A stretch of DNA of 64,000 nucleotides from Actinomycetota bacterium (GCA_046713235.1 JBKKBZ010000116.1:2742-66741); one strand, 5' to 3'; counted from the first letter of the stretch, positions 25,449 through 41,438 are shown. A program made the numbers and translations. Notes: generated by a model from the letters alone, not told the origin.

Positions 25449-26540
25449 CTAGGCAGGGACGGCGGACGAAGCGAATCGCCCGACGGCCTCCGCCAGCGCG
25501 CCGGCAAGCATGCGGCGGAACCTATCGTCGGCGAGTAGCGCCTCATCGGCCGGGCTCGTCAGGTAAGCGGGCTCGAGGTGAACCGCCGGCATGCGAGTCT
25601 CTCGCAAAATCGGCCACGTCTTGGCGTGCGTCCGGCCGTCGGTGAGGCCGAGCCCACACACGGCCGATTGGCAGAGATCGGCGAGTCTGGCTCCTACCTG
25701 AGACTCGAATCGCTCGTGTCCGTAGTAGAAGGTTGCCGATCCGCTCGCCGCCGAATCGGTGTGTGCCGCGGTGTGGATCGAAAGAAAGATGTCGGCGGAA
25801 AGGCGATTGGCAAGATGTGCCCGTTCCCGGTCGGTTGGGTTCGCCATGTCGTCACGCGTCAGGAACACCGATGCCCCGGAAACCGCGAGGCGTTCCTCGA
25901 GATGCCGGGCGACGGCATACACGCAGTCGGCTTCTGCCAGGCCGTCCGGACCCACATCTCCGCGGTCGGGACCGCCATGTCCCGGGTCGATCACTACGAC
26001 CAGCCCGGGCGTGCCGGCAAGACGGCGAAAGGACTCGCGCTCACGAATCGGCCCCACCTGAGGAACGGTTGGGTGAGCGAGATGGGGAAGGCCGGCCAGC
26101 GCGCGAACCGTCGATTCCCCGACGATCGCGTCGGGGGGGAGTCCGTAATTCTCCTGAAACTCGCGCAACGCAAGCGCGGTTCGGGGCCCGAGAATGCCGT
26201 CGACCCTGCCGGCGTCGAATCCGAGCGCGCTCAACCGCTCCTGAAGCTCCCGCACGTCGTCGCCGCGGATCTGTGGGGAACGCAGATACAGCGTGCGATC
26301 GCCCAGCCGCCAGGAGGCCTCCACTAGCTCGCGCCAGGTATCGGGACCGACGAGACCGTCTACGAGAAGACCTCGCGCTTGCTGGAAAGAGCTGACGGCT
26401 TGAGCCGTTCCGGAACCGAACGCCCGGCTCCCCTCGTCCTCGCCTACCGAATGGCCGAGAGCGATCAGCCGCTGCTGGATGTCGCGGACTGCTCGTCCTC
26501 GGGCTCCCGGTCCGATGACCATGGCGCTATCCTTCCCCAA
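25449..26540 (-). CDS. cwlM: CwlM-like N-acetylmuramoyl-L-alanine amidase (2x PG-binding domain plus Amidase_3), no signal peptide
   Basis: ORF 25449..26540. Two PG_binding_1 repeats (VRDIQQRLIALG...GPDTWRELV; VRELQERLSALGF...GPRTALALREFQ) are followed by VVIDPGHGGPD...FLSIHTAAH. Confidence 0.88.
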   Translation of the reverse strand: MGKDSAMVIGPGARGRAVRDIQQRLIALGHSVGEDEGSRAFGSGTAQAVSSFQQARGLLVDGLVGPDTWRELVEASWRLGDRTLYLRSPQIRGDDVRELQERLSALGFDAGRVDGILGPRTALALREFQENYGLPPDAIVGESTVRALAGLPHLAHPTVPQVGPIRERESFRRLAGTPGLVVVIDPGHGGPDRGDVGPDGLAEADCVYAVARHLEERLAVSGASVFLTRDDMANPTDRERAHLANRLSADIFLSIHTAAHTDSAASGSATFYYGHERFESQVGARLADLCQSAVCGLGLTDGRTHAKTWPILRETRMPAVHLEPAYLTSPADEALLADDRFRRMLAGALAEAVGRFASSAVPA

Positions 26541-26950: not shown

Positions 26951-27279
26951 CGGTCCTCCCTGAGCTTCAAAGCATACCGTTCAACGAGCTTCATGAGCTG
27001 ACGGACCTGGTAGGGCTTCGCCTGACCGCTCACCTCTTGGAGGTTGACGAGCTCCGAGAGGTCCGGATGGCCGTAGATGTGATGACTCCCTGAGACCCGC
27101 TTTCGCTCGAACCCAAAGGCCTCCACGAGCCGGGCAAGATCATCGAACGAGACGTTCTTCACCGATCCTCGGGCTACGCGGCGAAGGAGCTTGCGAGGAT
27201 CCACGAGAACCACCCTATCGGGGACCGCCGTCACAATACCGAGGTCGCCGTTCGTGTGGACCGCGACCGCTGAGTCCAT
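26947..27279 (-). CDS. hicA: type II toxin HicA (mRNA interferase)
   Basis: ORF 26947..27279. Contains LARLVEAFGFERKRVSGSHHIYGHP...KPYQVRQLMKLVE. A shorter start at GTG 27204, preceded by AGGGTGG, would give the usual size of about 85 aa. Confidence 0.82.
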   Translation of the reverse strand: MDSAVAVHTNGDLGIVTAVPDRVVLVDPRKLLRRVARGSVKNVSFDDLARLVEAFGFERKRVSGSHHIYGHPDLSELVNLQEVSGQAKPYQVRQLMKLVERYALKLREDR

Positions 27280-27902: not shown

Positions 27903-29036
27903 TCAGATCGCTTGCCCGTGCGCCTCGATGCGCCCGAGGTCCAGCTCCACACCGAGCCCCGGCTTGGCCGGAAGAGCTATCGTTCCGTCTGCGTCTACTC
28001 GAAACGGTTCGGCGAGCATCGCGTCGCGCCCTTCGGGGACCCATCCCGGCGGGTCGTAGGGGAACTCTATGAGCGCGCCGTTCGTCGCGGCGAGCACATG
28101 AAGATTCGCGGCGAAACCGAGCCCGTTGGACCAGGCGTGCGGCATGAATCCGATGCCGAACTGCTCGGCCGTACGTGCTAGGGACAGCGCCCCGGCAATG
28201 CCACCGCTGACCGTCGCGTCCGGCTGGATGATGTCGACCGCGCGGCGCTCAATCAGCTCCCGCACCGGCCAGATGTCCCCGGCAAACTCCCCCCCGGCGA
28301 TGGGGGTGGTCGTCTGGTCGCGCAGGCGACGGTAGCCTTCGAAATCGAACTGATCCAGCGGTTCCTCCAGCCAGGCGACCCCGTACTCCTCGTACGCGCG
28401 AGCGGTCGCGAGGGCCCGTTTGAAATCCCACCGCGGTCCCTGTGCGAAGACGTCGACGCGCCATCCCTGGTTGGCGTCGGCGGCGACGCCGAACTCGTCG
28501 CCGACCGCTTCTCGGACGGTGCGCACCTCGTCGACGTCCTCACGCATGGACTCGTGGCGCGGCCGGAGCTTCACGCAGCGAAAGCCGGCCTCCCGGGCGG
28601 CCAGCGCGTCGTCGGCTCGCCGCTTGGCCTCCCGCATCTCCCCGAACGACGCGTACGCCGGGACCCGGTCGCGTGTACCGCCGAGGTAGCGATACAACGG
28701 CAAGCCGGCCGCTTTCGCGGCGAGGTCGTAGAGCGCCGTCTCGATGAACCACACGCGCAGGCCCAGCGCGCGAACGGCGGCCTCGAGGATAGGACGCAGC
28801 TCCGCGGGTCGCGATGGGTCGCGCCCGATGAGGAAGGCGCGCATGAGATTCACCGGACCACGCGGCTCGTCGGCGAACGCCACCCACCCCGCGTAGCCCT
28901 CGAGGCCATCGTCGGTGACCAGGCGATAGACCACGCATGAGTTGTTGGGATTGGCGAGGCCGGGGATCCACGCCGGCGAGAAAGGCGCCGGAAGCGGGAA
29001 ATGGCATATCCATGCGTCGATGCGGTCGATCTTCAT
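27903..29036 (-). CDS. enolase-superfamily enzyme (mandelate racemase/muconate lactonizing family)
   Basis: ORF 27903..29036. Has an N-terminal capping domain, metal-ligand regions ADANQGW, LEEP and IQPD, and a barrel-end HAWSNGLG. Confidence 0.8.
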   Translation of the reverse strand: MKIDRIDAWICHFPLPAPFSPAWIPGLANPNNSCVVYRLVTDDGLEGYAGWVAFADEPRGPVNLMRAFLIGRDPSRPAELRPILEAAVRALGLRVWFIETALYDLAAKAAGLPLYRYLGGTRDRVPAYASFGEMREAKRRADDALAAREAGFRCVKLRPRHESMREDVDEVRTVREAVGDEFGVAADANQGWRVDVFAQGPRWDFKRALATARAYEEYGVAWLEEPLDQFDFEGYRRLRDQTTTPIAGGEFAGDIWPVRELIERRAVDIIQPDATVSGGIAGALSLARTAEQFGIGFMPHAWSNGLGFAANLHVLAATNGALIEFPYDPPGWVPEGRDAMLAEPFRVDADGTIALPAKPGLGVELDLGRIEAHGQAI

Positions 29037-29120: not shown

Positions 29121-29402
29121 GTGCCCCGCTATCTTCGTTGGATTGCCGCGGCGACGAGTGCCGTGATGGTGCAGTTCGCGTTCTTCGTAGGCGTCGGCGC
29201 GGTAGCGGTTGGAACCGGGAACAAGGAGCTGTCGGGAGGGATCGGGCTGTTGGTTACGCTCGGCTCGACGCTGGTGCCCGTTCTCGTGGCGCTTGCAGTC
29301 AACGATTGGCTTGCCCGCCGCTACCCGGCCACGGCGCAAGAGTCTTCTGAAACCGGGGCGGCCGGGCGACTCGCGCCGGTCGAGCCGTCAGTGCCCGAGT
29401 GA
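29121..29402 (+). CDS. possible small membrane protein (2 TM)
   Basis: In-frame GTG 29121 of ORF 29001..29402 gives VPRYLRWIAAATSAVMVQFAFFVGVGAVAV...LLVTLGSTLVPVLVALAV. The 3' end overlaps the trxB 3' end convergently by 15 nt. Confidence 0.35.
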   Translation: MPRYLRWIAAATSAVMVQFAFFVGVGAVAVGTGNKELSGGIGLLVTLGSTLVPVLVALAVNDWLARRYPATAQESSETGAAGRLAPVEPSVPE

Positions 29403-30314
29403 CTCGAGGTAGCGCTCGGCGTCGATAGCCGCCTGACACCCCATGCCGGCAGCGGTCACGGCCTGGCGGTAGATGTGATCGACAACGTCGCCGCACGCAA
29501 AGACACCCTCCACGCTGGTCGCCATGCGCGGGTGCGCGACCCGGATGTATCCCTCCGCGTTCATCTCGAGCTGGCCTGCGAAAAGCGTGCTGTTGGGGTC
29601 GTGACCGATGGCCACGAAGAGACCCCCGGTCTCGAGGTCGGTGGTGTCGCCCGTTTTCACGTGCCGGAGCCGCAGCCGGTCGACTTTGCCGTTTCCCCCG
29701 AGGACGTCCTCGACAACGGTGTCCCAGATGAAATCGACCTTGGGGTTGGCAAAGGCGCGCTCCTGCATGATCTTCGATGCGCGTAGCTCGTGGCGCCGGT
29801 GCACTACGGTGACCTTGGTTGCAAACCGGGTTAGGAACACAGCCTCTTCGACGGCCGAGTCTCCCCCGCCGGCGACGACGAGCGGAACACCTCGGAAGAA
29901 GAAGCCGTCGCAGGTGGCGCAGGTCGAAACCCCGCGGCCCAGGTACTCGCGCTCGCCTGGAACACCCAGCATCCGGGCGCGCGCGCCCGTGGAGACGATG
30001 AGCGTTTTCCCTTCGTAGGTCGCGTCGCCCGACTCAACGACGAAGGGACGTGTCCCGAGATCCACCCGAGTGGCGTCGGCGGTGATGAACTTGGCACCAA
30101 ACCGCTCCGCCTGCGCGCGGAACTTTTCCATCAGCTCGGGGCCGAGTATGCCGTCGGGGAAGCCGGGATAGTTCTCTACCTCGGTCGTCAGCATCAGCTG
30201 TCCGAGGGGTGTGGCGCCCTCGATGACCAGCGGGTCGAGCTGCGCGCGGGCCGCGTACAGCGCGGCGGTGAGGCCGGCCGGCCCAGAGCCGACGATTATG
30301 ACGTTCTCGGACAT
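29388..30314 (-). CDS. trxB: thioredoxin-disulfide reductase
   Basis: ORF 29388..30314. Contains GSGPAGLTAA (FAD), CATCDG (redox centre) and GGGDSAVEEA (NADPH). Confidence 0.96.
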   Translation of the reverse strand: MSENVIIVGSGPAGLTAALYAARAQLDPLVIEGATPLGQLMLTTEVENYPGFPDGILGPELMEKFRAQAERFGAKFITADATRVDLGTRPFVVESGDATYEGKTLIVSTGARARMLGVPGEREYLGRGVSTCATCDGFFFRGVPLVVAGGGDSAVEEAVFLTRFATKVTVVHRRHELRASKIMQERAFANPKVDFIWDTVVEDVLGGNGKVDRLRLRHVKTGDTTDLETGGLFVAIGHDPNSTLFAGQLEMNAEGYIRVAHPRMATSVEGVFACGDVVDHIYRQAVTAAGMGCQAAIDAERYLESLGH

Positions 30315-30388: not shown

Positions 30389-31177
30389 CTAGATCGGGCG
30401 TTGCGCCCAGTAGAGAGTGAAGCAATCCGACGGACGAAGGACCCAGACTTCGGCCCTCGTCGGGCTGCCCTTGGGCGCGACGAAGAAGAGCACGTAGGCT
30501 TCGCGACCTTCGAACGTCGCGACCTCGTAGCGCTGGGGATCAAGCGGCGCATCGGCTCCACGGACGACGTCCTCGGCGCATTCGAGCAGCCCGGGTGGAG
30601 CCGTTGTAAAGGCCGTCCCTGTTTCGTATTCACCCGAGGCGGGACTAGGTATTAGCGTGTCCTTCGAGGTGCTTCTTGCGGTTCCCCTCTCGGTGGACCC
30701 GTCCACGGCAACGGTGCCGAACGCGGCCAGCTCGGCCGAGGCTGAAGCCCGGTCGTAGGTGCGTCCGGCGAGCACGGTGACCTGCTGATCCGAGGCTCCG
30801 GAGGTGTTCTCCCGGAGTGCCGAGTTGCCTCCCTGTCGAGAGACGTCGCGCAGGCTGAGCAGTCCGATCGCCAGCAATCCGGCTGCCGCCGCACCGGCGG
30901 CCCATCCCCAGCGGCGGGTCGCTTTGCTGCGCGCGGGGGAGACGACCGCGAGGCGACGTGCCTCGGCGACCCGGTCGGTGATGAAGGCTGCGGAGACCTC
31001 ATCGAGCGCCACCGGCTCGAGGGAACGCAGGTCGCCGACCGTCGCCCGCAGCGCCTCCAGGGTGCGGCGGCACTCCGCGCACTCGGGGAGGTGATCGTCG
31101 ATGCCGGCGCGGTCGGCGGCGTCGAGCTCTCCGTCGAGATAGGCGGAGAGCAGGTCGAGCTGGTCGTGTTTACTCAT
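30389..31177 (-). CDS. membrane-anchored zinc-binding (ZAS, HxxxCxxC) anti-sigma factor
   Basis: ATG 31177 of ORF 30389..31258 gives MSKHDQLDLLSAYLDGELDAADRAGIDDHLPECAECRRTL. One TM segment (WGWAAGAAAAGLLAIGLL) precedes an extracytoplasmic domain. The start overlaps the sigma gene stop (ATGAGTAA). Confidence 0.82.
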   Translation of the reverse strand: MSKHDQLDLLSAYLDGELDAADRAGIDDHLPECAECRRTLEALRATVGDLRSLEPVALDEVSAAFITDRVAEARRLAVVSPARSKATRRWGWAAGAAAAGLLAIGLLSLRDVSRQGGNSALRENTSGASDQQVTVLAGRTYDRASASAELAAFGTVAVDGSTERGTARSTSKDTLIPSPASGEYETGTAFTTAPPGLLECAEDVVRGADAPLDPQRYEVATFEGREAYVLFFVAPKGSPTRAEVWVLRPSDCFTLYWAQRPI

Positions 31178-31769
31178 CGGGTCTCGCCACCTTAGAGGGT
31201 TCTTCCTCCCCCTCGGGTTCCAAGTGCCCGAGAATACGTGCCAATTCGAGCCGGGCACGATGGAGGCGGCTCTTTACCGTCCCGATCGGAATTTTCAAGG
31301 CAAAGGCGACTTCGGAGTAGTCCAGGTCCTCGAGGTCGTGAAGAACGACGACTGCCCGGTGATCCGGGCTCAGCGAGGCGACGCCTCGGCGGACGGCTTG
31401 GGCGCGGTGCGCTGCCAGGGCCAGTTCCTCCGGCCCGGGGCCGGCATCGGCCGTCTCGGGAACGTCGTCGAGCGCAGCGTGGTCGCGCCGGCTGCGGCGG
31501 CGACCGAGGTCCACGGCTGCGTTCACGGCAAGCCGGTGAAGCCAGGTGGTCAGTTTCGCCTCGCCGCGGAACGACCCCAGCGAGCGATAGGCCGTCACGA
31601 ACACTTCCTGGGCCACGTCGAGGGCGTCCTCGTGACGCCCGCACACGCGAAGCGCCACCGCGTACACCCGCGTGCGGTGGCGGGAGACGATCTCATCGAA
31701 GGCGGCAGTTTCCCCGGCGAGATGCCGCCGGACCAGCTCGGGGTCGGTCGCGCGGGTGGGGTCGGTCAT
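31170..31769 (-). CDS. ECF-type RNA polymerase sigma factor (SigM-position)
   Basis: ORF 31170..31769. Region 2 reads DALDVAQEVFVTAYRSL...TWLHRLAVNAAVD; region 4 reads DLDYSEVAFALKIPIGTVKSRLHRAR. Confidence 0.9.
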   Translation of the reverse strand: MTDPTRATDPELVRRHLAGETAAFDEIVSRHRTRVYAVALRVCGRHEDALDVAQEVFVTAYRSLGSFRGEAKLTTWLHRLAVNAAVDLGRRRSRRDHAALDDVPETADAGPGPEELALAAHRAQAVRRGVASLSPDHRAVVVLHDLEDLDYSEVAFALKIPIGTVKSRLHRARLELARILGHLEPEGEEEPSKVARPDE

Positions 31770-31776: not shown

Positions 31777-32943
31777 TCAGCCGCCGTCGTTCACGTATAC
31801 CCGCTCGATGTGGGAGCCCACGAGCAGGCGGCGGGCCTCGATGCGCACGACGTCTCCCACGGCCACTCCCGGAACGTCGCCGACATCGACGGTTGCTTGC
31901 TGCATCGAGATTCGTCCGACGACGGGCGCCCGTCCGCCGCGTACCGTAACCGCGCGCGGGGACGAGCGACGGCCGGCGACGATCGCCGCGACGCGCAAGC
32001 CGGCTCGCGCCGCTTCCGACCAGGATTCGGTTCGGGCGGCAGGCTCGAGGCCGAATCCGTCGGCGTATCCGACCGGGATGGTGGCAACTCGCGTCGGCCG
32101 CCCGGCGCGCCACTCGCTCCCGTACCCGACACCTTCGCCGGTTGCGACCGTTCGCAGGCTGACGATGCGTGCGAACCAAGAGAACGGATCCTCCAGCGGC
32201 ATCGGTGCGCGAACGTGCGGAGGATCGAGACCGTATAGGAGCGTTCCCACGCGCACCATGTCGTAGCGCGCCTCCGGGTGGGCAATCGTCGCCGCGGAGT
32301 TTGCCGCATGGAGGATGGTCCGGGCGGCTCTCTTTCCCAGCGCCGTCCGGACGCGCTCGAAGGCCGCGATCTGAGGAGAGGCCGACGCGGTCCCGGCGGC
32401 CGCGAAGTGGGTCCAGATACCTTCGAGCGAAATGTGGTCATCCCCGGCCGCCCGGCCGGCAACGACCACCGCGTCGTTGGGCGAAACCCCCAGGCGTCCC
32501 ATTCCGGTGTTGACCTTCATGTGGACATGCGCGCGCTTCCCGCCGGCCTCGGCGGCAGCCGAGATGGGACCGAGATCTTCGGATGAGGCGACGCATAGGG
32601 TGAGGTCGAGGGCGATCGCGTCGCGGATCAGGTCTGCCGGAATCGGAGTGAGCAGCAGGACGGGCGTGGAGATCCCCGCTGTGCGGAGCTCGCGTGCCTC
32701 TTCCCATCGGGTGACCGCGAGCATGCGAGCCCCGGCGTCGGCCAACGTGCGCGCGACGGCAACGAGCCCGTGGCCGTAAGCGTTGGCCTTCACCACGGCG
32801 CACACGGGAACGCCGGCGTGTGCCGCAACGGCCGCAAAGTTGTTGCGTATGGCGTCGAGCGAGATCTCGATCCACGTGGACGCACCCCGGGGGATCCGCC
32901 CGGCATCACCGGGAGATCCAAGGTCAGTCGGCGAGCGAGCCAC
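31777..32943 (-). CDS. alr: alanine racemase
   Basis: ORF 31777..32943. PLP-lysine motif AVVKANAYGHG, plus PVGYADG and a C-terminal beta domain. Confidence 0.92.
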   Translation of the reverse strand: MARSPTDLGSPGDAGRIPRGASTWIEISLDAIRNNFAAVAAHAGVPVCAVVKANAYGHGLVAVARTLADAGARMLAVTRWEEARELRTAGISTPVLLLTPIPADLIRDAIALDLTLCVASSEDLGPISAAAEAGGKRAHVHMKVNTGMGRLGVSPNDAVVVAGRAAGDDHISLEGIWTHFAAAGTASASPQIAAFERVRTALGKRAARTILHAANSAATIAHPEARYDMVRVGTLLYGLDPPHVRAPMPLEDPFSWFARIVSLRTVATGEGVGYGSEWRAGRPTRVATIPVGYADGFGLEPAARTESWSEAARAGLRVAAIVAGRRSSPRAVTVRGGRAPVVGRISMQQATVDVGDVPGVAVGDVVRIEARRLLVGSHIERVYVNDGG

Positions 32944-34012
32944 CGCTGCCTCGCAGAGCCTTGAGCGCTCTCATTGCCACCGGCGCACCGTATCGCCATC
33001 CTCGGTACATCACCGAACGCAGCGGGAGGTCCAGCTCGCCGACGTACTCCACGTAGCGCGCGCCGAACCCGGCCTTGAACCGATTCAGCCCGGCAAGGTG
33101 CTCTTCGGTCGGCTTGCCGTTACGCATGGGCGACACCCCGCGAAAATCGTAGGTCTGAAAGCCTCGGTCGTGCGCCCAGCGGATCATCGTCCACTGGAGC
33201 AGATGATTCGGCATGACGTTGCGATCCCGGCTCGACGAGGCGCCGTAGGTATACGTCGCGCGAGACCCGAACGTGAGCAGCATCGCCCCGGCGATCGCGC
33301 GACCCTCGTACCGCGCGAGGAACATCGCGAGCCGGCCGGCCGGCGTCAGGACGTCGACCAGGCGCTCGAAGTACTCGCGGCCGCGAATGAGGAAATGGTC
33401 CCTGCGCGCCGTCTCGAGCAGCAGGTCGTAGAAGACCGGAAGTTCGTCTCGTCCGGCCTCGGAAACTTCCACTCCCTTTCGCTCGGCCAGCCGGATGTTG
33501 TACTTCCATTTCTTGTGGAACCCTTCGTGCACGCTGTCGATGCCGGGGGCGAGATCGAGGACCATGACCGCGCGCGGTTGTACGCCACCGAATCGTCCCG
33601 CCCCCGACGGACGAAAACCTGCGGCCGCCAGGGCACCCGCTTCCGCGATGCCCATCGGAATCGGAGGATCACACTTCAAGAGGATTGCCTTTCCCGCTCG
33701 CCGCTCGACCTCGGCAAGTATTGCCCCAAGAGCCTCTGGTTGCCGGTAATCGAGCACCGGGCCACGCGGACAGTACAGAATCGGAGGCGCCCCACGAACC
33801 GGTCTCGTTTCCAGAACCTGAGCCGCTGCGACGATCCCGTGGCCGCCTTGGACGAGGATCCGATGGGGGACCCAGCCGCCGGTGCGCTTGACCTCCCCCC
33901 AGGCGAAGGATTGGAGAACGTCGGCGAAGGGCGAGCGCGCAACGAAGTCGTCGTAGAGATCCCTCTCGTGCTCGCCGGCGATGCGGGGCCGCAAGGCCCC
34001 TGAGTCGATCAA
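32924..34012 (-). CDS. FemAB-family peptidoglycan branch peptidyltransferase (aminoacyl-tRNA dependent family)
   Basis: ORF 32924..34222. Contains FLQSFAWGEVK-like SFAWGEVKRTGGW, KKWKYNIRLAERKGV, and YTYGASSSRDRNVMPNHLLQWTMIRWAHDRGFQTYDFRG. The preferred start TTG 34012 overlaps the pseudokinase stop (TTGA). Confidence 0.8.
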   Translation of the reverse strand: MIDSGALRPRIAGEHERDLYDDFVARSPFADVLQSFAWGEVKRTGGWVPHRILVQGGHGIVAAAQVLETRPVRGAPPILYCPRGPVLDYRQPEALGAILAEVERRAGKAILLKCDPPIPMGIAEAGALAAAGFRPSGAGRFGGVQPRAVMVLDLAPGIDSVHEGFHKKWKYNIRLAERKGVEVSEAGRDELPVFYDLLLETARRDHFLIRGREYFERLVDVLTPAGRLAMFLARYEGRAIAGAMLLTFGSRATYTYGASSSRDRNVMPNHLLQWTMIRWAHDRGFQTYDFRGVSPMRNGKPTEEHLAGLNRFKAGFGARYVEYVGELDLPLRSVMYRGWRYGAPVAMRALKALRGSGGSLAD

Positions 34013-35397
34013 CCTGCCGCCTCGAATGTGATTTCGGCGACGGCGGCCTGGAACGGGAGGTTGCTTCCCGAGCCGGCGTTGGCAAGCTCCGTTATCCACA
34101 GCAGCCAGTAACGACCCTGGTTTTCCCCGGACGGCTTCACCGCGCCGTCGGAGCTGGCCGTAAACGACGCGACGACCCTGTAGTCGGCCGCAGACCCTCC
34201 GGCCGCGCCGGAGACTCGCCATTCACCACGCCAGCCGGCGATGGGGCTGCGCAGACGGATCGTATCGACGCGCACGTTGGCTCCGAGATCGAAGAGCAGG
34301 CCGACGCCGGGCTTGGAGCCGCCGAGGTTTGCCGACGCGTAGCCCACAGTCGTCCATGCGCTGGTGGCGTCACCGTCGAGAACCAGCGCTACCTTTTCGG
34401 GGTGTTCGCTGCCGTTTCCGGGATTCGGGTCGAAGTCCCGGACGGCTGCCACGGATAGCGCCCCCCGGGGCGAAGGGGAAGGGGATGCCGCGCCCTCGCG
34501 TCGCTGGGGAAGGAGCTTCGCAACGGTCAAGCCGGCGACGATCGCCCCGGCCGCGACGCCGAGGAACAACAAGAGCGCGAGCAACCACCGGCCCTCCGTT
34601 CGCAGGTAGCCCGGCTCCCGAGCGGCCGGCGGTGCCTTGGGGGCTGCGAACGGCTCGACTGCGTCGAGAAAGCTCGGCAGGTCCGAGTGCCCACCGAGAG
34701 CGCGTTCGACGGCCGAAGCGAGTTCCGCAGTCACCCCGCGCGATCCTGTCAGGGAGGTGCCCGGTGTGTTGGGCGGGCGGCCGGTGAGCATGTGGACGGT
34801 GAGAGCGGCCAGTGCCCGAAGGTCTGCCTCTGCCGGCTCCTTCGGATCGGGACCTGGGTACCCCTCCGGCTGTACCGGTGGATCGGCCGGCTCTCCTCGC
34901 GCTCCTCCGGCAAGCATCGCAACCTCCACCAGGCCGGGTCCGAGCAGCTTGGCTCGGCCTTCCTCGTCGAATGCCACCCAGGCCGGACCGATGGCGCCGT
35001 GCGTCCGCCCCGCTTGATGAAGGACCCGGAGCGCGGCCCCGACACTGGATGCCACCCGCGCCGCCTCGGCAACCGGGAGCGTGCCGTCGCGCAGCCGCTC
35101 GGCGAGCCGCCCGCCCGTCGGGTGCTCGGTGACCAGGTACGGCGGATCGTCGCCGCAGTCGTAGATCTGCACCAGACGCCGGTCGACGAGCTGGGCGTCC
35201 CGTGCGGCGATGCGCAGAAGCGCCTCGCGGGTCCCGGCATCGCCGGCAACATCGGGACCCAGCATGTGAACGAGCACCGGCCGGTTCAGGACGGTGTCGC
35301 GCGCCTCCCAAACCGGCCCGGCCGGCGCCGGCCACGCCAGACGTTCCACGCGGTAACGCCCCGCGATCACGGTGCCGGTTCGCACGACGTCTTTCAT
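34009..35397 (-). CDS. membrane-spanning pseudokinase (degenerate Ser/Thr kinase fold) with an extracellular discoidin/F5-8-type-C-like domain
   Basis: ORF 34009..35397 has a Hanks-kinase-like layout with the catalytic motifs lost. The G-loop reads AWPAPAGPV, VAIK reads VLVHM, HRD reads GRTHGAIGP, and DFG reads LLGPG. One TM segment (WLLALLLFLGVAAGAIVAGL) follows. The C-terminal domain reads DGDATSAWTT...YWLLWITEL. Confidence 0.8.
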   Translation of the reverse strand: MKDVVRTGTVIAGRYRVERLAWPAPAGPVWEARDTVLNRPVLVHMLGPDVAGDAGTREALLRIAARDAQLVDRRLVQIYDCGDDPPYLVTEHPTGGRLAERLRDGTLPVAEAARVASSVGAALRVLHQAGRTHGAIGPAWVAFDEEGRAKLLGPGLVEVAMLAGGARGEPADPPVQPEGYPGPDPKEPAEADLRALAALTVHMLTGRPPNTPGTSLTGSRGVTAELASAVERALGGHSDLPSFLDAVEPFAAPKAPPAAREPGYLRTEGRWLLALLLFLGVAAGAIVAGLTVAKLLPQRREGAASPSPSPRGALSVAAVRDFDPNPGNGSEHPEKVALVLDGDATSAWTTVGYASANLGGSKPGVGLLFDLGANVRVDTIRLRSPIAGWRGEWRVSGAAGGSAADYRVVASFTASSDGAVKPSGENQGRYWLLWITELANAGSGSNLPFQAAVAEITFEAAG

Positions 35398-35444
35398 TTG
35401 GATAAACGCACCCTCCCAGCGCGGCGGGTAATGTCGAGAGACGG

Positions 35445-35834
35445 TCAGACGGAAAATGCTCGCGCGCTCGAACGCACCCTGACGAACCTCCTGAGTGGTC
35501 CGATTCGGTGAATGAAGAGGGTCTTGGCCTCCCTGGCTACGGTGACATTGACCCGCTCCTGGCCGCCTGCTCCTGCGTCGTCCGCAGAGAACCCGACGAG
35601 AACGGATCCCTCTCGGCGGACGATCTTCTCGGCTTCCGCACGTGCCGCCCGAACGTCGCGCGAATGCGCGAAAACGCCGACTGCCTCCTGGGCGGCGGTT
35701 CGGGAGGCGTTGTCCGCGCCGACGTTGGCGATCACGATTGCCGCGCCCTCAAAGAGCAGCACGCCGGCGACGGCCAGCCCGACGAATACCCGAAGGAACC
35801 ATCCGATGAGGATGCCGCCGCGCTCGCCGCTCAC
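35445..35834 (-). CDS. membrane-anchored hypothetical protein (N-terminal TM, TadE-like topology)
   Basis: ORF 35445..35834. The start overlaps the murJ stop by 4 nt. N-terminus reads ERGGILIGWFLRVFVGLAVAGVLLF. Confidence 0.6.
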   Translation of the reverse strand: MSGERGGILIGWFLRVFVGLAVAGVLLFEGAAIVIANVGADNASRTAAQEAVGVFAHSRDVRAARAEAEKIVRREGSVLVGFSADDAGAGGQERVNVTVAREAKTLFIHRIGPLRRFVRVRSSARAFSV

Positions 35835-37513
35835 ACCCTCGATCCTCGCACGAAACGCGCGAGTACGGTGCGAACCAGGGGGCGCGACTCCTCCATGCGC
35901 AGCAGCACGGCAAGTCCGGCATAGACGGCGATCCCGGACGCCACACCCGCCGCAACCTCCAGCATCTGCCCGGAGAGCGCGGTCGTATCGACGGCATCGG
36001 CCACTGCGCGCGAAGCGGCCCAGGCCACCGCTCCGGTCGCGGCGGACGCACCGAGAATCTTGGCGTGGCTTACGGCCACCCGGCGCCCGTCGATGCCGCC
36101 CAGCTTGCGCCGGAGAATCGCACCACCGATCACCGCGGCCAGGAGGTACGACGCGGCGTGCCCCAGGGCGAGACCCGGGACGCCCAGCGCGGCAAACAGC
36201 GGGAAGTTGACCACGATGTTGAACGCGGTCGACCAGAAGTTGATCAGCCAGGGCGTCCTCGTATCCTGCCGGGCATAGAGCGCTCGCGTTTGCTGTTGAA
36301 ACACGGCGAAGCCACCGAGTCCGAGCGCCATGAACGCGAGCGTGTCGGCTAAGAGTTCCGTGGATCCCCGCGAGAACACCCCATGCTCGAGAAGGAGCCT
36401 GACGATGGGCGTGGCGAGGGCGACGAACCCGGCCGCGGCCGGCAGCACGACGAAGGAGGTCATGCGCGTGCCGGTGGAGAGGTCCCGGATGAAGCTCGTC
36501 CTGTCGCCCCGTACGTGATGCGCCGAGAGCGCCGGGATCAGGGCTGTGAAGACGCTAACCGCAAAGATGCCGTACGGCAGCTGATACAGCGCGTAGGCGC
36601 CTAGAAACGCCGTCACCCCGCCGTTCACTCGGTTCGCCAGGGCGAAAACCATCCAGAGCCCGACCTGATTGATCGCGACGAAGGCAAGCGAGTACTTGGC
36701 GAGATGCCCGACGCGGCGGACGGCGGGATGTCGCCACTCCCACGCACGGAAGCTGTACCGGCCGGGCAGTTGACGAATGTACGGCCACAAGATGAGCGTC
36801 ATCACGACGACCCCCAGCGTCGTCCCCCCTCCCAACAAGAGCTTGTCGGCCGTCGTCAGATCGGTGAGCTGGAGGATCCCTTCCGGGTTCTTGATCCGGA
36901 AGGCAACAAACGTGGCCGCGACGATCACGTTGTTCAAGACCGGAGCAAACATCGGCGGCGCGAAACGCCGGTGTGCCGTGAGGAGGCCCGTCAGCACGGC
37001 GCCTGCGGCGTAGAAGATCATTTGGGGCATCAACAGCCGCAGCAGAAACGCACCGATTTCGTTCTGCTGGGAGCGCAAAGGCTCGGGCGCGCGGAAGGTG
37101 TACATCCGGATAAGCCAGGGAGCGGCGAGCACCGTCACGACGACCAGTGCCGCGGCCGCCACCACCGCAAGATTGAGAATCGTTGAGGCCAGCCGCCAGG
37201 ACTCGTCACGGTCCCGCGTGGTGAGATACTCGACGAAGACCGGAACGAAAACGGTTGCGAGAATCTCTCCCAGGATCAGTTGGTACACGACGTTGGGTAG
37301 GTTGTTTGCCAGGTTGTACGTGTCGGGGACCTTCGATTCGACCCCTCCGATTGCCCAGGCCATCACCGAAAGCCGCACGAAGCCGGTCGCCCGGGACAGC
37401 GTGGTGCCGACGCTCATCACTGCGGTCGCCCTCGTTAGCGAGATTCCGGCGTGCAGGTCCGGGGCCTCCGGGGCGGCAGGCTCGGGCGCGGCCGGGCGAT
37501 CCGCTTCGCTCAC
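35831..37513 (-). CDS. murJ: lipid II flippase MurJ (MviN)
   Basis: ORF 35831..37513, 560 aa, 14 TM-type profile. Contains TLSRATGFVR...AFVPVFVEY...YALYQLPYGIF. Confidence 0.92.
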   Translation of the reverse strand: MSEADRPAAPEPAAPEAPDLHAGISLTRATAVMSVGTTLSRATGFVRLSVMAWAIGGVESKVPDTYNLANNLPNVVYQLILGEILATVFVPVFVEYLTTRDRDESWRLASTILNLAVVAAAALVVVTVLAAPWLIRMYTFRAPEPLRSQQNEIGAFLLRLLMPQMIFYAAGAVLTGLLTAHRRFAPPMFAPVLNNVIVAATFVAFRIKNPEGILQLTDLTTADKLLLGGGTTLGVVVMTLILWPYIRQLPGRYSFRAWEWRHPAVRRVGHLAKYSLAFVAINQVGLWMVFALANRVNGGVTAFLGAYALYQLPYGIFAVSVFTALIPALSAHHVRGDRTSFIRDLSTGTRMTSFVVLPAAAGFVALATPIVRLLLEHGVFSRGSTELLADTLAFMALGLGGFAVFQQQTRALYARQDTRTPWLINFWSTAFNIVVNFPLFAALGVPGLALGHAASYLLAAVIGGAILRRKLGGIDGRRVAVSHAKILGASAATGAVAWAASRAVADAVDTTALSGQMLEVAAGVASGIAVYAGLAVLLRMEESRPLVRTVLARFVRGSRV

Positions 37514-39504
37514 ACCGGGGCCCGGTTCCGCGAGCGGCTACGCAGCGCCCTGCGCATCCACGTGAGGAAGAGCGCAATCGCTCCGCCGAGGGTGATGATG
37601 AGCGTCACCGCACTAACGCGAGTCGAGCGCACGACCAGCTCGCTCTGCCCGACGGGGGCGCCGTCGAGGGTCTCCAATCGCACGACGACGGGGAAGGATC
37701 CGCTGACCCGTGTCTCTGCTTGGAACGTCATGGTGAAGACCCGCTGGGCCACCGTCACGTTGCGGCTCGCGCCTCTCGGGAAGCGCATTTTCGTCGAATC
37801 GAGCGTGACCCGCACGCGCACCGGTTGACCGGTGCCGTTGACGAGCGTGACCGGAATCTGAGCGATTCGCGATGTCAGGGTCACCCGGCGCTCCGGCACC
37901 CTGATCAAGTCCAGTGTGCGCTCGGCGCGCCCCCGTGCAGCACGTGCGAGGATCGAACCCCGAGAGGGATCGGCGATCCAGTCCGCGGACTGGGCCGCCA
38001 GGATGAGACGCTCCAGAAGCTCGACCGGCCTCTCGGGCTCGAGCACCCGTACGAGTGTGTCCACGGCCCGACGAGCCGCGCGAGCAGCAGACAGCGCCGG
38101 CCGGTCGGGGTCCGTGGAGCTGTCGAGAGCGAGTACCTTGTCGGTTGGGGGGAGCGCGGATGCGGCTTGGGTGGCGGTGAGAAGGCGGACCCATGGAGCG
38201 CCTGCCAGCGCGTCGAGAAGCGCGCCTGCTGCAGCCGAGTCGGGCGACGTCGGGGTGCCGACAACGAGCAATCGCTCGGAGGCAAGCGCCGGGAGCTCGA
38301 AGAACGAAGCGGCGGTCTCTGCCACCACGCCCTGCGCGGCCAGGACCGGATCGCGCCTGCTGCTCAATCGGTCGCGAATGGCGGGATCGACGACCAGGCC
38401 CGTCAGTCGAACCTGATTTCCGCCGGCTAGTGCTTGGGGGCGATCGAATCCGAAGTTCGTCAGGCTTTGGGGGAGGGACTCGGGCGCGATGGCCACCACC
38501 CGGGCACCAGTCGCGGCGATCGCGCCGGCCGAGCGCTTGTCGAGACGGAAATCCGGGGGCACGAACAGTCCCGGCGTGGCCGGGCGCCCGAGCAACCGCC
38601 GGATGCGCTCATCTTCGGAAGAGAGTTGCAGGCTCAGCTCGCTCTGCATCCGGTTCGACAGCAACCCGATGATGTCGGCGCGGGAATAGGTCGAAGAAGC
38701 CAGGTCGATTGCCGGCGACCCCACCGCGCGGCGGAGGGCGGCGAGCGCCCGACGCGCTCCCACCGCGGTCGGGTCGCCGGGATGCACGGCGCGCCTGCCG
38801 CCGGCCGGGTAGCCGTCCCCGGCGTCGTCGAGCTGGTCGAGCGTCAGTCCGGTCGGCGCGATCGTGACCGGAGCGCTGGGGCGGGAAGCAAGTGCCTCGA
38901 TCACCGCCCGGAGACCTGCTCCCGGCGCCAGGTGGCGCTCGATCGTTCCGGATGGGTAGACGCCGCGGGCATCGAATGCGGCCGGCAGATGAACCGGGTA
39001 GATCCACGCGACGTTCAGCCGGCTTGACGGCGGCGTGAAGAAGAACGGCACAGCCGTTGTCGCGTGGGCCAGGTCCCGGCCACCGGATATAAGGCGCACC
39101 GACACGGGATACACACCATCGCGGCCCTGGGCGCGAAACGTCCCGGCAAGGGTACCGAGATCCCGGGTCAGGGTTCGGACCCGGCGCTCCCCGGAGACGA
39201 GCGGTTCGACTTGGTCTGTCGTTACAACGAGAACATCACCCCCGGGGTTGCCGTCGAGGGCCGCACGAAGCTCCGATCGCGAGAAAACCCGGTTGTGCAC
39301 GGAGATTCTGATCGTGAGATCCTCGAGCGGGATGGATCCGGGGTTCGTGAGCGCGAACGTCACGCTCAGCAGGCGATCCTGACCGACGAAGGGGGAAACC
39401 CCCAGGAGCGTGAACCCGGGGTCCCGGTCTTGGGCAAGTCCGGATCCGGGAAGTGTCCCCAGGAGGAGTCCGAGCGCGAGGAGAGCGGCGCGTACGATCC
39501 GCAC
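37510..39504 (-). CDS. large secreted/anchored protein, Rv3909-like (DUF6049-type)
   Basis: ORF 37510..39504. Signal peptide MRIVRAALLALGLLLGTLPGSGLA and a C-terminal TM (VTLIITLGGAIALFLTW). It overlaps the murJ start by 4 nt and holds the conserved position upstream of murJ. Confidence 0.65.
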   Translation of the reverse strand: MRIVRAALLALGLLLGTLPGSGLAQDRDPGFTLLGVSPFVGQDRLLSVTFALTNPGSIPLEDLTIRISVHNRVFSRSELRAALDGNPGGDVLVVTTDQVEPLVSGERRVRTLTRDLGTLAGTFRAQGRDGVYPVSVRLISGGRDLAHATTAVPFFFTPPSSRLNVAWIYPVHLPAAFDARGVYPSGTIERHLAPGAGLRAVIEALASRPSAPVTIAPTGLTLDQLDDAGDGYPAGGRRAVHPGDPTAVGARRALAALRRAVGSPAIDLASSTYSRADIIGLLSNRMQSELSLQLSSEDERIRRLLGRPATPGLFVPPDFRLDKRSAGAIAATGARVVAIAPESLPQSLTNFGFDRPQALAGGNQVRLTGLVVDPAIRDRLSSRRDPVLAAQGVVAETAASFFELPALASERLLVVGTPTSPDSAAAGALLDALAGAPWVRLLTATQAASALPPTDKVLALDSSTDPDRPALSAARAARRAVDTLVRVLEPERPVELLERLILAAQSADWIADPSRGSILARAARGRAERTLDLIRVPERRVTLTSRIAQIPVTLVNGTGQPVRVRVTLDSTKMRFPRGASRNVTVAQRVFTMTFQAETRVSGSFPVVVRLETLDGAPVGQSELVVRSTRVSAVTLIITLGGAIALFLTWMRRALRSRSRNRAPV

Positions 39505-40358: not shown

Positions 40359-41438
40359 ATGGCCCAGATAGAGATCGACGACCTGCTGAGAATGACGGCC
40401 GAGCGCAAGGCCTCCGACCTCCACCTCCGGGCCGGAGGTCCCCCGTACGTGCGGGTGGACGGCGAGCTGTACCAGCTCGACGGCATTTCCTTGACGCCGG
40501 CCGACGCCGAGCGCCTTGCGTTCAGTCTCATGACGGAACAGCAGGCGCGGGAGTTCAACCGGACCAACGAGCTTGATTTCGCCTACACCGTCCCCGGGCT
40601 GGCCCGCTTCCGAGTCAACGTCTTCCGCCAGCGGGGCAGCCTCGGCGTGGCCGTGCGACGCGTGCTGCCCGGCGGGTCGTCGTTTGATGCTCTCGGCCTC
40701 CCTCAGGTCGTGCGGAAACTGGCCGACGAGCAGCGAGGGCTAGTGCTCGTCACCGGAATGACGGGCTCGGGAAAGACGACCACGACGGCGTCGATGATCC
40801 ACCACATCAACATGACCCGCCGTTGTCACATTGTGACGATCGAGGATCCGATCGAGGTTCTTCACGACGACCGGATGGCGATCGTCGATCAGCGGGAAGT
40901 AGGGATCGATACCGCCGACTTCTCGGTGGCGCTCCGTCACGTTGCCCGGCAAGACCCGGACGTGATCTTCATCGGCGAGATGCGCGATATCGAGACGGTA
41001 AAGGCGGCGCTGCAGGCGGCCGAGACCGGCCACCTTGTCGTCTCCACGCTGCACACCTTGAATGCGACCGAGACGGTCAACCGCATCATCGACTTCTATC
41101 CGCCGCACCAGCAGATGCAAGCGCGCCTCTCGCTTGCGGGAACCCTGAAGGGGACGGTCTCGCAGCGGTTGCTCCCCCGAACCGACGGCAAGGGCCGGAT
41201 CCCGGCCGTCGAAGTCTTGATCATGACCGGGCGCGTCTACGACATGATCATCAACCCCGAGAACACCCACCTGATCGAGGACGTCATTGCCGAGGGAGAT
41301 TTCTACGGGATGCAGACCTTCGATCAGCACCTGCTGGGGCTCTATCGTGAGGGCCTTGTGACGATCGAGAATGCGGTTGCCGCCGCGAGTTCTCCGCACG
41401 ACTTCACGCTGGCGGTTCGTCAGGCCGGTCTGGCCTAG
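40359..41438 (+). CDS. pilT: PilT-family type IV pilus retraction ATPase
   Basis: ORF 40359..41438. Contains ASDLHL, Walker A GMTGSGKTTT, Asp box IVTIEDPIE, Walker B VIFIGEMRD and His box LVVSTLHT. Confidence 0.9.
   Translation: MAQIEIDDLLRMTAERKASDLHLRAGGPPYVRVDGELYQLDGISLTPADAERLAFSLMTEQQAREFNRTNELDFAYTVPGLARFRVNVFRQRGSLGVAVRRVLPGGSSFDALGLPQVVRKLADEQRGLVLVTGMTGSGKTTTTASMIHHINMTRRCHIVTIEDPIEVLHDDRMAIVDQREVGIDTADFSVALRHVARQDPDVIFIGEMRDIETVKAALQAAETGHLVVSTLHTLNATETVNRIIDFYPPHQQMQARLSLAGTLKGTVSQRLLPRTDGKGRIPAVEVLIMTGRVYDMIINPENTHLIEDVIAEGDFYGMQTFDQHLLGLYREGLVTIENAVAAASSPHDFTLAVRQAGLA

Follow-up and report, generated by a model that had tools for sequence, protein, structure and literature searches.

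Does the MurJ region of this window, a 64,000-nucleotide stretch of DNA from an Actinomycetota bacterium, encode the mycobacterial MviN protein in separate pieces, and what could a kinase-like protein stripped of its catalytic residues do beside a lipid II flippase? MviN from M. tuberculosis (Rv3910; ActPs3; PDB 3UQC, 3OTV, 3OUN) fuses MurJ, a pseudokinase, a 15th transmembrane helix and a carbohydrate-binding-like ectodomain in a single chain. The original prediction assigned these parts to three neighboring genes (34009-37513), and all three are open reading frames at the expected positions on the minus strand (Table 1).

Table 1. Features of the MurJ region and its downstream neighborhood in the window.
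Feature	Coordinates	Strand	Basis and remarks
DUF6049 protein, 664 aa	37510..39504	-	Pfam DUF6049 1.3e-24; opens coupled block
MurJ lipid II flippase, 560 aa, without C-terminal extension	35831..37513	-	Pfam MurJ 1.3e-82; TIGR01695 284 bits (cutoff 235.55)
Small membrane-anchored protein, 129 aa, TadE-like	35445..35834	-	Sequence, AF2; TIGR03816 in relatives
Receptor-type pseudokinase, 462 aa (entire gene with stop)	34009..35397	-	ORF, HMMER, AF2, Foldseek
Cytoplasmic pseudokinase domain, residues ~8-250	34648..35376	-	HMMER vs PknE/PknA, column counts, Foldseek
Single transmembrane segment, residues ~271-293	34519..34587	-	AF2 helix; conserved E268..W271 motif before segment
Extracellular beta-sandwich, residues ~312-462, distant F5/8-type-C / galactose-binding-like	34012..34464	-	AF2; Pfam in relatives
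FemAB-family peptidyl transferase	32924..34012	-	Pfam FemAB 8.5e-50; likely TTG start at 34012
Alanine racemase (Alr)	31777..32943	-	ORF; L001/L002 ortholog with Ala_racemase_N and Ala_racemase_C
ECF sigma factor, SigM position	31170..31769	-	ORF; Sigma70_r2/r4 in L001/L002 orthologs
Anti-sigma factor, zf-HC2 type	30389..31258	-	Maximal ORF, true start probably ~31173; zf-HC2 in L001/L002 orthologs
Thioredoxin reductase (TrxB)	29388..30314	-	ORF; Pyr_redox_2 in L001/L002 orthologs
CwlM-like protein, two PG_binding_1 and Amidase_3	25449..26540	-	Pfam; closes conserved neighborhood; also in L001, L002, L027

We analyzed the 462-residue protein by sequence comparison and structure prediction. Its best PDB matches with phmmer are PknE and PknA (5e-11), and its AlphaFold2 (AF2) model, with a mean pLDDT of 89.2, has PknA, PknB and PknI as top Foldseek matches (target-normalised TM-scores 0.65-0.77). 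HMMER alignments place W22-P-A-P-A-G27 at the GxGxxG of the G-loop, H44 at the VAIK lysine, I63 at the alpha-C glutamate, H133-G-A-I-G-P-A-W140 at HRDxKxxN and G153-P-G155 at DFG. Each predicted substitution is thus borne out within a confidently modeled kinase fold; no intact Lys/Asp set emerges after alignment, and every residue for ATP binding and phosphotransfer is lost. These residues are missing in all 21 family members compared, which are 39-58% identical to the window protein, so the loss is old and maintained and does not reflect a sequencing artefact. H133, G134, P138, D144, E146 and R148 are invariant in the same alignment. Against Pkinase the pseudokinases score 18-62 bits, compared with 155-167 bits for two active kinases that were scanned as well. 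Mean pairwise identity is 0.46 in the kinase-like domain and 0.49 in the ectodomain, the N-lobe equalling the ectodomain and the C-lobe being lower. The dead domain is about as conserved as the ectodomain, which points to selection on it.

The model continues with one helix (residues 264-293) that includes the hydrophobic stretch starting at W271; E268, W271 and L272 are invariant ahead of, or at, the start of the transmembrane segment. Residues ~312-460 then form a confident beta-sandwich, 10-residue blocks of the region 311-460 averaging pLDDT 87-98. The discoidin-like ectodomain expected after a single membrane crossing is only faintly visible in the window protein, whose PF00754 match is not significant (E=0.17), and is backed by its relatives: F5_F8_type_C is matched in 9 of 21 (best 9.5e-6, profile positions 12-115 of 127), and one relative from the same genomic position matches F5_F8_type_C_2 with 28.5 bits, above the cutoff of 27.8.

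The operon reads DUF6049, MurJ, small protein, pseudokinase, FemAB, Alr, sigma/anti-sigma, TrxB, Trx and CwlM-like protein, and adjoins oriC; it matches the order of Rv3909-Rv3915 in M. tuberculosis. Three junctions overlap by 4 nt: the DUF6049 stop with the MurJ start, the MurJ TGA stop with the GTG start of the small protein (GTGA), and the pseudokinase stop with the likely TTG start of FemAB (TTGA), the last being identical in L001, one of the related loci. DUF6049 also precedes MurJ in L001-L003, L026, L027 and L030, and the order DUF6049, MurJ, small protein, (pseudo)kinase and, further on, sigma, anti-sigma, TrxB, Trx and CwlM is conserved in L001-L003 and L025-L030. This region makes up the central part of a cell-wall operon that is conserved in actinobacteria and lies next to oriC.

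The split layout is not unusual: the genes are separate in every related locus examined, and this is the normal state in Actinobacteria. It had already been noted: according to the legend of S6 Fig of PMC10166564 (2023), mviN orthologs that lack the extension frequently have a "protein kinase family protein" downstream. Of the 20 genome loci L004-L023, 17 have both MurJ and the small protein (L020 and L022 have no small protein; L005 duplicates the L001 sequence), and in 14 of these 17 the (pseudo)kinase is also present within the fetched DNA. The unfused state is widespread and therefore plausibly ancestral, as had been proposed. The dead state, on the other hand, is probably derived, because eight related loci have in this slot a kinase whose catalytic motifs are intact and whose ectodomain is the same (L018, L019, L021, L023; L025, P0277; L028, P0353; L029, P0254; L030, P0250). 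The active receptor kinases of L018, L019, L021, L023, L025, L028 and L030 also share the transmembrane segment and, in most cases, the small protein upstream, and the full-length profile matches them at 1e-60 to 1e-81. Unlike the dead window protein, they keep a GxGxxG-like G-loop, VAVK, the glutamate of alpha-C, HRDxKPxN, DFG and an activation segment with SPE. A different type of pseudokinase fills the slot in Frankia-like lineages and, according to the literature, the MurJ-fused pseudokinase occupies the corresponding slot in mycolata.

We propose, as a reasonably probable reading, that the 462-residue protein is a non-catalytic transmembrane sensor and scaffold linked to MurJ, an unfused positional counterpart of the C-terminal region of MviN that would derive from an active MurJ-linked receptor kinase. 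Its ectodomain may bind a cell-wall glycan or precursor cue; ligand binding would lead the pseudokinase domains to dimerise, and dimerisation could alter recruitment to, or activity of, the co-encoded machinery for lipid II export and peptidoglycan precursors (MurJ, FemAB, Alr, CwlM-like). The pilin-fold small protein would be a third, older partner of MurJ and not a lineage-specific adaptor.

A parallel can be drawn with the PASTA kinases PknB/StkP and with PknA, which are by sequence and fold the closest solved kinase domains. Like the window protein they are receptor-type, and through a domain that senses the wall outside the cell they act on peptidoglycan synthesis; the window protein differs in being a dead kinase and in having a discoidin-like beta-sandwich instead of PASTA repeats. 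PknB uses back-to-back N-lobe dimers. We take R14, L37 and D80 to correspond to the residues that mediate this dimerisation in PknB and M. tuberculosis MviN, a mapping made by residue spacing; all three would then be retained in the window protein, and in its family they are kept in 20/20, 20/20 and 21/21 sequences, respectively. Counted from the beta3 position, L37 stands 7 residues upstream and D80 36 residues downstream, a spacing equal to that of L750 and D793 in MviN, if its beta3-Lys equivalent (the T of VALT) is residue 757, as we deduced from the L37/D80 spacing. The MviN dimer depends crucially on L750 and D793, which have analogs in other bacterial kinases (PMC12599244).

How close, then, is the window protein to MviN itself? 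Both have the same domain set and order and the same complete loss of catalytic motifs, together with the N-lobe residues above. Their neighborhoods also agree, with DUF6049 upstream, SigM-type sigma/anti-sigma, TrxB, Trx and CwlM downstream, and oriC nearby. The window differs by its three polypeptides, with the TadE-like protein between MurJ and the pseudokinase, and by FemAB and Alr inserted ahead of the sigma factor. Sequence likeness is another matter: the top 60 PDB matches of the window pseudokinase family profile do not include MviN, with PknA/PknB/StkP and even eukaryotic kinases ranking above it, and neither do the 41 matches of the C-lobe profile. The idea of a MviN counterpart thus holds for domain set and neighborhood, and fails for specific likeness to the MviN pseudokinase.

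The standalone pseudokinases of Frankia and Mycobacteriales metagenome-assembled genomes (alignment A4), which occupy the same slot, match the MviN structures 3UQC/3OTV/3OUN at 6e-23, and MviN ranks first of all matches of their C-lobe profile (2e-5). Here we take them to be the standalone kinase-family protein named in the S6 Fig legend of PMC10166564. Like the window protein they are encoded by a separate gene that comes after those of MurJ and the small protein, and consist of pseudokinase, transmembrane segment and a homologous ectodomain. Unlike in the window, one or two NlpC/P60 genes separate the small protein from the pseudokinase, many members keep the Lys/Arg of beta3, the Asn and the Asp of DFG (HGRLHPGN, DVA), and their activation segment is shortened: the DFG and alpha-F equivalents are separated by a median of 23 residues, as against 36 in the window family and 38-39 in active kinases. 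They share with MviN the C-lobe signature RWP, in place of which the window family has the ordinary kinase LTGxxP. One of them, P0499, is named MurJ by NCBI. By sequence, the window pseudokinase is not of the MviN (ActPs3) type, as it displays neither this C-lobe signature nor the activation-loop deletion. Common descent of its dead state with that of MviN is unproven, since there is no specific sequence affinity and no such deletion.

The window clade could indeed have lost catalysis apart from the Frankia/Mycobacteriales lineage of MviN, starting from an active MurJ-locus receptor kinase, by convergent loss in orthologous genes. This seems to us quite possible, if short of probable, and it is compatible with a sensor and scaffold role, as it concerns history only. 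Active kinases hold the slot in eight loci, and L018, L019, L021 and L023 carry one of two MurJ motifs of the window clade (VMAWA[IM]G[GA] or PDTYNLAN, search patterns drawn from its MurJ alignment). The remnant motifs differ, with Q/H/F/Y, HG(A/S)x(G/S)P and no DFG Asp in the window clade versus K/R, HGRLHPGN and D(V/L)A in the Frankia type, as do activation-loop lengths and C-lobe signatures. Neighbor-joining (NJ) trees are divided: the ectodomain alone groups the two pseudokinase clades in 0/100 bootstraps, although this tree is poorly resolved (144 columns), whereas the kinase domain and the full-length sequence group them in 68/100 and 88/100, which could be due to long-branch attraction between relaxed domains.

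Could the protein instead be a true MviN-type pseudokinase whose parts are merely separate, a PknB-like kinase phosphorylating a juxtamembrane Thr so that an FhaA-like protein docks and late peptidoglycan synthesis is throttled? The shared locus and domain set would fit, as would the degraded catalytic motifs with a C-terminal transmembrane helix, described for ActPs3 (PMC12599244), the position of T267 directly ahead of the transmembrane segment, and the nearby CwlM-like gene, the equivalent of which in M. tuberculosis encodes a substrate of PknB (PMC6180346). However, T267, the sole juxtamembrane Thr, is confined to the window's own subclade (8/21 aligned sequences; S, A or Q elsewhere) and falls inside the predicted helix 264-293, and no juxtamembrane Thr is conserved throughout the 21 sequences. 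A scan of the likely genes of the 64-kb window yielded neither an FHA protein nor an active kinase. Given also the missing MviN matches, activation-loop deletion and RWP signature, we consider this reading, and with it the FhaA mechanism initially suggested, unlikely.

Less expected, along with the intact kinases in the same slot of related lineages, was the likeness of the 129-residue protein to a pilus subunit. It starts with a hydrophobic helix and matches no Pfam family, and its AF2 model (pLDDT 92.8) shows a helix 3-58, a helix 61-74 and three strands in a pilin-like topology. TIGR03816 (Rv3654c-family TadE-like) is matched, near full-length, by 60 of 64 family members, all below its cutoff (best 4.7e-8; 20 bits for the window protein, cutoff 50.95). 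The protein is a remote TadE-like one. It is not an insertion special to this genome: homologs follow MurJ in 23 loci, divergent lineages included. It resembles the TadE-like minor pilins Rv3654c/Rv3655c of the actinobacterial Flp/Tad locus in length, N-terminal hydrophobic helix and small beta-sheet, but scores far below the family cutoff, has Trp for the pilin Glu+5 and lies beside MurJ instead of tad genes. A PilT-like ATPase gene nearby could suggest that it belongs to a type IV/Tad-like pilus system and adjoins MurJ by accident. We find this improbable: its gene is translationally coupled to MurJ, it also follows MurJ in L026 and L027, where the fetched stretch has no T2SSE gene, and no prepilin peptidase, platform or secretin gene was seen in the window. 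In addition, an invariant Trp stands at the position of the assembly-critical Glu+5, the G/xxxxE site is absent, and all TadE matches of the family are far below the cutoffs.

Finally, WNK and SelO-type proteins exemplify relocated residues or a different reaction, and the window domain might likewise be atypical instead of dead, binding nucleotide or catalyzing another reaction. Pseudokinases with alternative chemistry have been reviewed (PMC12599244), and H133, D144, E146 and R148, all invariant, and K150 (K in 19/21, R in 2/21) lie near the former active site; this is nevertheless hardly credible, as the alpha-C Glu, HRD Asp, Asn and DFG Asp are absent across the family, the N-lobe has no invariant Lys, the G-loop glycines have given way to a Trp/Pro-rich stretch (W22 at the first Gly position in 19/20), and K150 corresponds in the alignment to the usual structural Lys/Arg of beta8, not to a catalytic Lys.

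The 462-aa protein is encoded in a co-oriented run of genes on the minus strand, from about 39.5 kb to 25.4 kb of the window (see table). The original prediction, that the architecture of Mycobacterium tuberculosis MviN (Rv3910, MurJ fused to a pseudokinase, a transmembrane helix and a carbohydrate-binding-like ectodomain) is distributed here over separate genes, was right as to the genes: MurJ, the small protein and the pseudokinase are all found at their predicted places as separate ORFs with their own stop codons and a 47-nt gap, without MviN-type fusion. As in the MviN module, the pseudokinase and its ectodomain are genetically linked to MurJ within a DUF6049...SigM...CwlM locus. Starts and stops overlap by 4 nt at three junctions, namely DUF6049/MurJ, MurJ/129-aa protein (GTGA) and 462-aa protein/FemAB (TTGA), which suggests a translationally coupled operon. 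The window is origin-proximal: the region 9582-23475 carries gyrA, gyrB, recF, dnaN and dnaA on the minus strand (dnaA at 16849-18399) and, from 19112 onwards, yidC, jag, gidB, parA and parB on the plus strand, with a minimum of cumulative GC skew at about 18-20 kb. This neighbourhood corresponds to the Rv3907c-Rv3915 region of M. tuberculosis, where MviN is encoded by Rv3910. Part of the M. tuberculosis gene order used for this comparison is taken from PMC12599244.

Genes of the MurJ-pseudokinase run in the window
Feature	Position	Strand	Remarks
DUF6049 protein	37510-39504	-	
MurJ	35831-37513	-	Pfam 1.3e-82; TIGR01695 284.1 bits over residues 25-546, above the equivalog cutoff of 235.55
129-aa small protein	35445-35834	-	
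462-aa pseudokinase	34009-35397	-	
FemAB-family transferase	32924 to about 34012	-	
Alanine racemase	31777-32943	-	
ECF sigma factor, then zf-HC2 anti-sigma factor	after alanine racemase	-	
Thioredoxin reductase	after anti-sigma factor	-	
Mandelate-racemase-family (MR_MLE) gene	27903-29036		between thioredoxin reductase and thioredoxin
HicA toxin-like ORF	26947-27279	-	Pfam 8.2e-9; between thioredoxin and CwlM-like gene
CwlM-like protein	end of run	-	two PG_binding_1 domains and Amidase_3

By sequence and predicted structure, the 462-aa protein has a bilobal Hanks-type kinase fold. Its score with the Pfam Pkinase model is 18 bits versus a cutoff of 31.7; searches of the PDB with phmmer returned PknE and PknA at 5e-11, and the profile of its family matches PknA and PknB at 5e-27. 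An AlphaFold2 model made with 21 homologs as input has a mean pLDDT of 89.2, and Foldseek with this full-length model, in which kinase matches swamp the ectodomain, retrieved PknA, PknB and PknI (E about 1e-13, target-normalised TM 0.65-0.77). The anticipated kinase-like nature of the protein was found again, and so was the replacement of every catalytic element, once the register had been fixed by HMMER alignments. The G-loop reads W22-P-A-P-A-G27, and two tryptophans, W22 and W30, sit in the former loop. H44 occupies the beta3 Lys position and I63 that of the alpha-C Glu; HRDxKxxN has become H133-G-A-I-G-P-A-W140, with A135 in place of the HRD Asp and W140 in place of the Asn, and DFG has become G153-P-G155. 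None of the catalytic residues survives in any of 21 homologs (39-58% identity with the window protein), the N-lobe has no invariant Lys, and no intact Lys/Asp set emerged from the alignment. Judging from these alignments, the protein has none of the features of a catalytically competent Ser/Thr kinase. A decaying pseudogene was rejected in view of the 46-49% pairwise identity of both domains and of the confident model. The dead kinase-like domain is itself under selection, since its mean pairwise identity is 0.46, versus 0.49 in the ectodomain.

The single membrane crossing that had been announced corresponds to one predicted helix after the kinase domain (residues 264-293), with a hydrophobic stretch from W271. 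It is followed by a confident beta-sandwich (residues about 312-460), whose proposed discoidin-like character was judged by the gathering scores of PF00754 and PF22633 together with the predicted fold. Nine of the 21 family members match almost the full length of F5_F8_type_C (profile positions 12-115 of 127, up to 26.2 bits), and an active relative from the same genomic position (locus L021) scores 28.5 bits with F5_F8_type_C_2, versus a cutoff of 27.8, but the window ectodomain itself gives only E=0.17 with PF00754 (12.4 bits versus a gathering score of 28.2). The discoidin-like assignment therefore appears to hold at the level of the family and is not significant for the window protein taken alone. 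With phmmer, the ectodomain gave only chance matches in the PDB, and no MviN ectodomain chain was among the matches of the sequence searches.

The unfused arrangement is not peculiar to the window. The homologs of the 462-aa protein, which come from uncultured Actinomycetota, are without exception standalone and measure 415-466 aa, and three relative loci (L001-L003) share an identical order: DUF6049, MurJ, a 125-130-aa protein, the pseudokinase, FemAB, Alr, sigma, anti-sigma, TrxB, Trx and CwlM. We also scanned species-representative genomes with highly specific patterns from a MurJ alignment and obtained 20 loci, all from uncultured Actinomycetota, a set without mycobacterial or Streptomyces loci. 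MurJ is accompanied by the small protein in 17 of the 20 (it is absent from L020 and L022, and L005 and L001 are one sequence), and in 14 of these 17 a kinase or pseudokinase gene also lies within the fetched DNA. Locus L020, from the same MAG as L018, carries a further MurJ paralog, which shares 41% identity with the MurJ of the window and is followed by no small-protein or kinase gene; linked and unlinked MurJ can therefore occur in one genome.

In Frankia-like and 'Mycobacteriales' MAGs, MurJ is again unfused (535-538 aa) and is followed by the small protein, one or two NlpC/P60 genes and a standalone pseudokinase with the same ectodomain as the window protein, then by a SigM-type sigma factor, RsmA, TrxB, Trx and CwlM. 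A profile of this Frankia type found 1235 proteins at E<=1e-10 among 8000 candidates evaluated; the best 120 of the 1235 all measure 471-539 aa, and several matches bear the NCBI name 'protein kinase family protein'. A 'protein kinase family protein' is frequent downstream of mviN orthologs devoid of the extension (PMC10166564, S6 Fig legend), and the fused mviN extension is confined to organisms with an arabinogalactan layer (PMC10166564, main text). Because the relative loci are unfused and because of these records, the 'split MviN' is the common state and the fusion the exception. The interpretation first given to the locus is thus retained in that it is the unfused form of an MviN-type module, but such a layout is common and already known from the literature. 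The names of four relative proteins (P0499, P0021, P0186 and P0194) are likely cases of annotation carry-over: MurJ or lipid II flippase for standalone pseudokinases that measure 444-498 aa, and 'mannitol PTS IIBC' or 'RseP' for homologs of the small protein.

The surroundings of the kinase or pseudokinase gene are variable and house cell-wall or lipid genes. In the clade of the window (31777-34012) the pseudokinase is followed by FemAB and alanine racemase, in Frankia-type loci it comes after one or two NlpC/P60 genes (L026, 5891-6892; L027, 4763-6964), and a DegV gene stands instead of the small protein in L029 and L030 (L030, 4086-4922).

By position and domain order, the window pseudokinase is the counterpart of that of MviN. 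Like the MviN pseudokinase family, ActPs3, it displays complete degradation of the three catalytic motifs (PMC12599244), and its predicted helix corresponds to the transmembrane helix after the ActPs3 pseudokinase domain. The equivalence that had been drawn with MviN is supported by locus, domain order and dead motifs, but extends neither to sequence affinity nor to the activation-loop deletion that is the hallmark of ActPs3 (PMC12599244). This deletion is observed in the Frankia type, where a median of 23 residues separates the DFG equivalent from that of alpha-F, whereas the window protein, with 36 residues versus 38-39 in the active kinases of the locus, is without it. Sequence affinity was judged via the MviN entries 3UQC/3OTV/3OUN of the PDB, with the Frankia type as positive control: its profile matches them at 6e-23, directly after PknA/PknB/PknE/StkP, and MviN is the top match (2e-5) of its C-lobe-only profile, via a common D-x-R...LYA-x-L-x-x-RWP signature. 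MviN is absent from the best 60 PDB matches of the window family profile, all better than 2e-13, and from the 41 matches of the C-lobe profile of this family. The remnants of the catalytic motifs differ as well. They are Q/H/F/Y at beta3, HG(A/S)x(G/S)P and no DFG Asp in the window clade; K/R at beta3, HGRLHPGN and D(V/L)A in the Frankia type; VALT, LSIDHPSR and Y-- in MviN. On these sequence comparisons, we consider the window pseudokinase a variant distinct from the MviN/ActPs3 type.

In an exhaustive search with the family profile, 4465 cluster representatives reached E<=1e-30. Intact VAVK, alpha-C Glu, HRDxKPxN and DFG are present in most of the best matches over the full length (450-570 aa, with kinase, transmembrane helix and the same ectodomain), and all active kinase proteins with an examined context lie at a MurJ/SigM-type locus. 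MurJ, small protein and active kinase follow one another in L018, L019, L021 and L023; in L025 they stand between a 722-aa gene truncated by the contig end, with no Pfam on record, and a sigma factor. L028 contains small protein, active kinase, sigma, anti-sigma, TrxB, a peptidase M23 gene, CwlM-like and ParB, and L030 contains DUF6049, MurJ, DegV, active kinase and sigma, an order that L029 reproduces minus MurJ. As the active proteins are all at the MurJ locus where examined, the family is best described as a MurJ/SigM-locus receptor kinase that is active in many lineages but dead elsewhere. Five giant proteins of 1500-2600 aa (P0245, P0246, P0261, P0276 and P0350) are also among the best matches of the family profile and contain 3-6 tandem kinase-like domains, some intact and some degenerate. 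P0307 (1216 aa) was rejected as a MurJ fusion, being a tandem-kinase protein.

One would wonder whether catalysis was lost once or several times. Neighbour-joining trees group the two pseudokinase clades in 68/100 bootstraps with the kinase domain and in 88/100 with the full length, and in 0/100 with the ectodomain only; these are crude distance trees (numpy NJ), by which single versus multiple inactivation is not settled, and there is a real risk that attraction between relaxed domains groups the pseudokinase clades. A tentative reading, which we hold to be rather unlikely as a whole, is that MurJ, a TadE-like pilin-fold protein and a discoidin-ectodomain receptor kinase formed an ancient, phylum-wide actinobacterial unit for the control of lipid II export, the kinase being originally active and silenced more than once (in the window clade and, separately, in the Frankia/Mycobacteriales line), with the fusion to MurJ coming last, in mycolata. 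If this were true, the well-studied MviN pseudokinase would stand at the end of a series that can be traced from kinase through pseudokinase to fusion, with the pilin-like protein as an unrecognised third component.

In M. tuberculosis, Thr947 of the MviN tail is the phospho-acceptor that recruits the FHA domain of FhaA (PMC10166564, PMC12599244). The extension of this route to the window is unsupported. A conserved juxtamembrane phospho-acceptor Thr was not found across 21 aligned sequences: the sole Thr near the membrane, T267, exists only in the window's own subclade (8 of the 21) and falls inside the predicted helix. Moreover, neither an FHA domain nor an active kinase, PknB-like or other, was detected with Pfam among the likely genes scanned across the 64-kb window.

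MviN forms a back-to-back dimer for which L750 and D793, analogous to dimerisation residues of other bacterial kinases, are crucial (PMC12599244). L37 and D80 of the 462-aa protein are their equivalents by spacing, 7 before and 36 after the beta3 position, if residue 757 of MviN is taken, also from spacing, as its beta3-Lys equivalent. The same spacing fits L33 and D76 of PknB, and PDB titles among the Foldseek matches name L33D and D76A mutants. Conservation of these positions is complete: L37 in 20/20 sequences, D80 in 21/21 and R14, the equivalent of PknB R10, in 20/20. We propose that the pseudokinase could act as a dimerising non-catalytic scaffold, the state of which would be set by the ectodomain.

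More than 140 homologs of the small protein were found, in a range of 112-147 aa and mostly of 124-133 aa, apart from one fragment of 82 aa; each comes from uncultured Actinomycetota and is without a Pfam family. Weak Pfam matches to FixH, SurA_N_3 and RNase_Y_N were discarded as artefacts of the N-terminal helix. Since homologs also follow MurJ in active-kinase and Frankia-type loci (family HMM, E 1e-16 to 1e-28), the small protein is probably a long-standing partner of MurJ, irrespective of whether the kinase is active or dead. Its AlphaFold2 model (pLDDT 92.8) has a predicted pilin-like topology, in which an N-terminal helix of 56 residues is followed by another helix and a sheet of three strands. 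TIGR03816, the model of the Rv3654c-family TadE-like proteins, gives near full-length matches in 60 of 64 members, all sub-threshold (best 4.7e-8; 20 bits versus a cutoff of 50.95 for the window protein), and NF041390, the Rv3655c TadE minor-pilin model, matches 18 family members. Solved pilins are weak structural matches, and where pilins have Glu+5 this family has an invariant Trp. No pilus-assembly genes were seen beside the small protein, save a nearby PilT-like ATPase in some lineages. This T2SSE ATPase adjoins the DUF6049-MurJ block in the window (40359-41438, plus strand), close to the small protein, and recurs in L001 (960-2033), L002 (1845-2915), L003 (2604-3674) and L029 (1-143); it was not found in the fetched DNA around Frankia-type loci. 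The role of adaptor that had been suggested for the small protein is a guess.

Control of MurJ by the MviN pseudokinase is a leading example of pseudokinase signalling in bacteria and is ascribed to mycolata in the papers cited here; the present loci suggest an unfused occurrence of the same module throughout Actinomycetota, at one conserved locus. Taken alone, the window holds a well-conserved but ordinary member of this module in an uncultured lineage. The wider pattern is more interesting. One locus holds three states, namely an active kinase, a dead one in two forms that differ in sequence and, known from the literature, a fused one, together with a TadE-like third gene. These states constitute a natural series on what receptor kinases keep after losing catalysis, which in the window family is the ectodomain, the dimer interface and the linkage to MurJ. 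The conserved pilin-like small protein is a candidate for a missing partner of MurJ.

Elsewhere in the window, genes for an RtcB RNA ligase and an archease form a pair (7728-9577, minus strand) directly beside gyrA. In an ORF at 57393-58367 (minus strand), the N-terminus is AbiEi antitoxin-like and the C-terminus resembles DUF559/REase_MTES_1575 endonucleases. Finally, an inositol-1-phosphate synthase, a PadR regulator and a class A PBP are encoded together at 48010-52516, a cluster that resembles ino1 / Rv0047c / ponA1 of M. tuberculosis.
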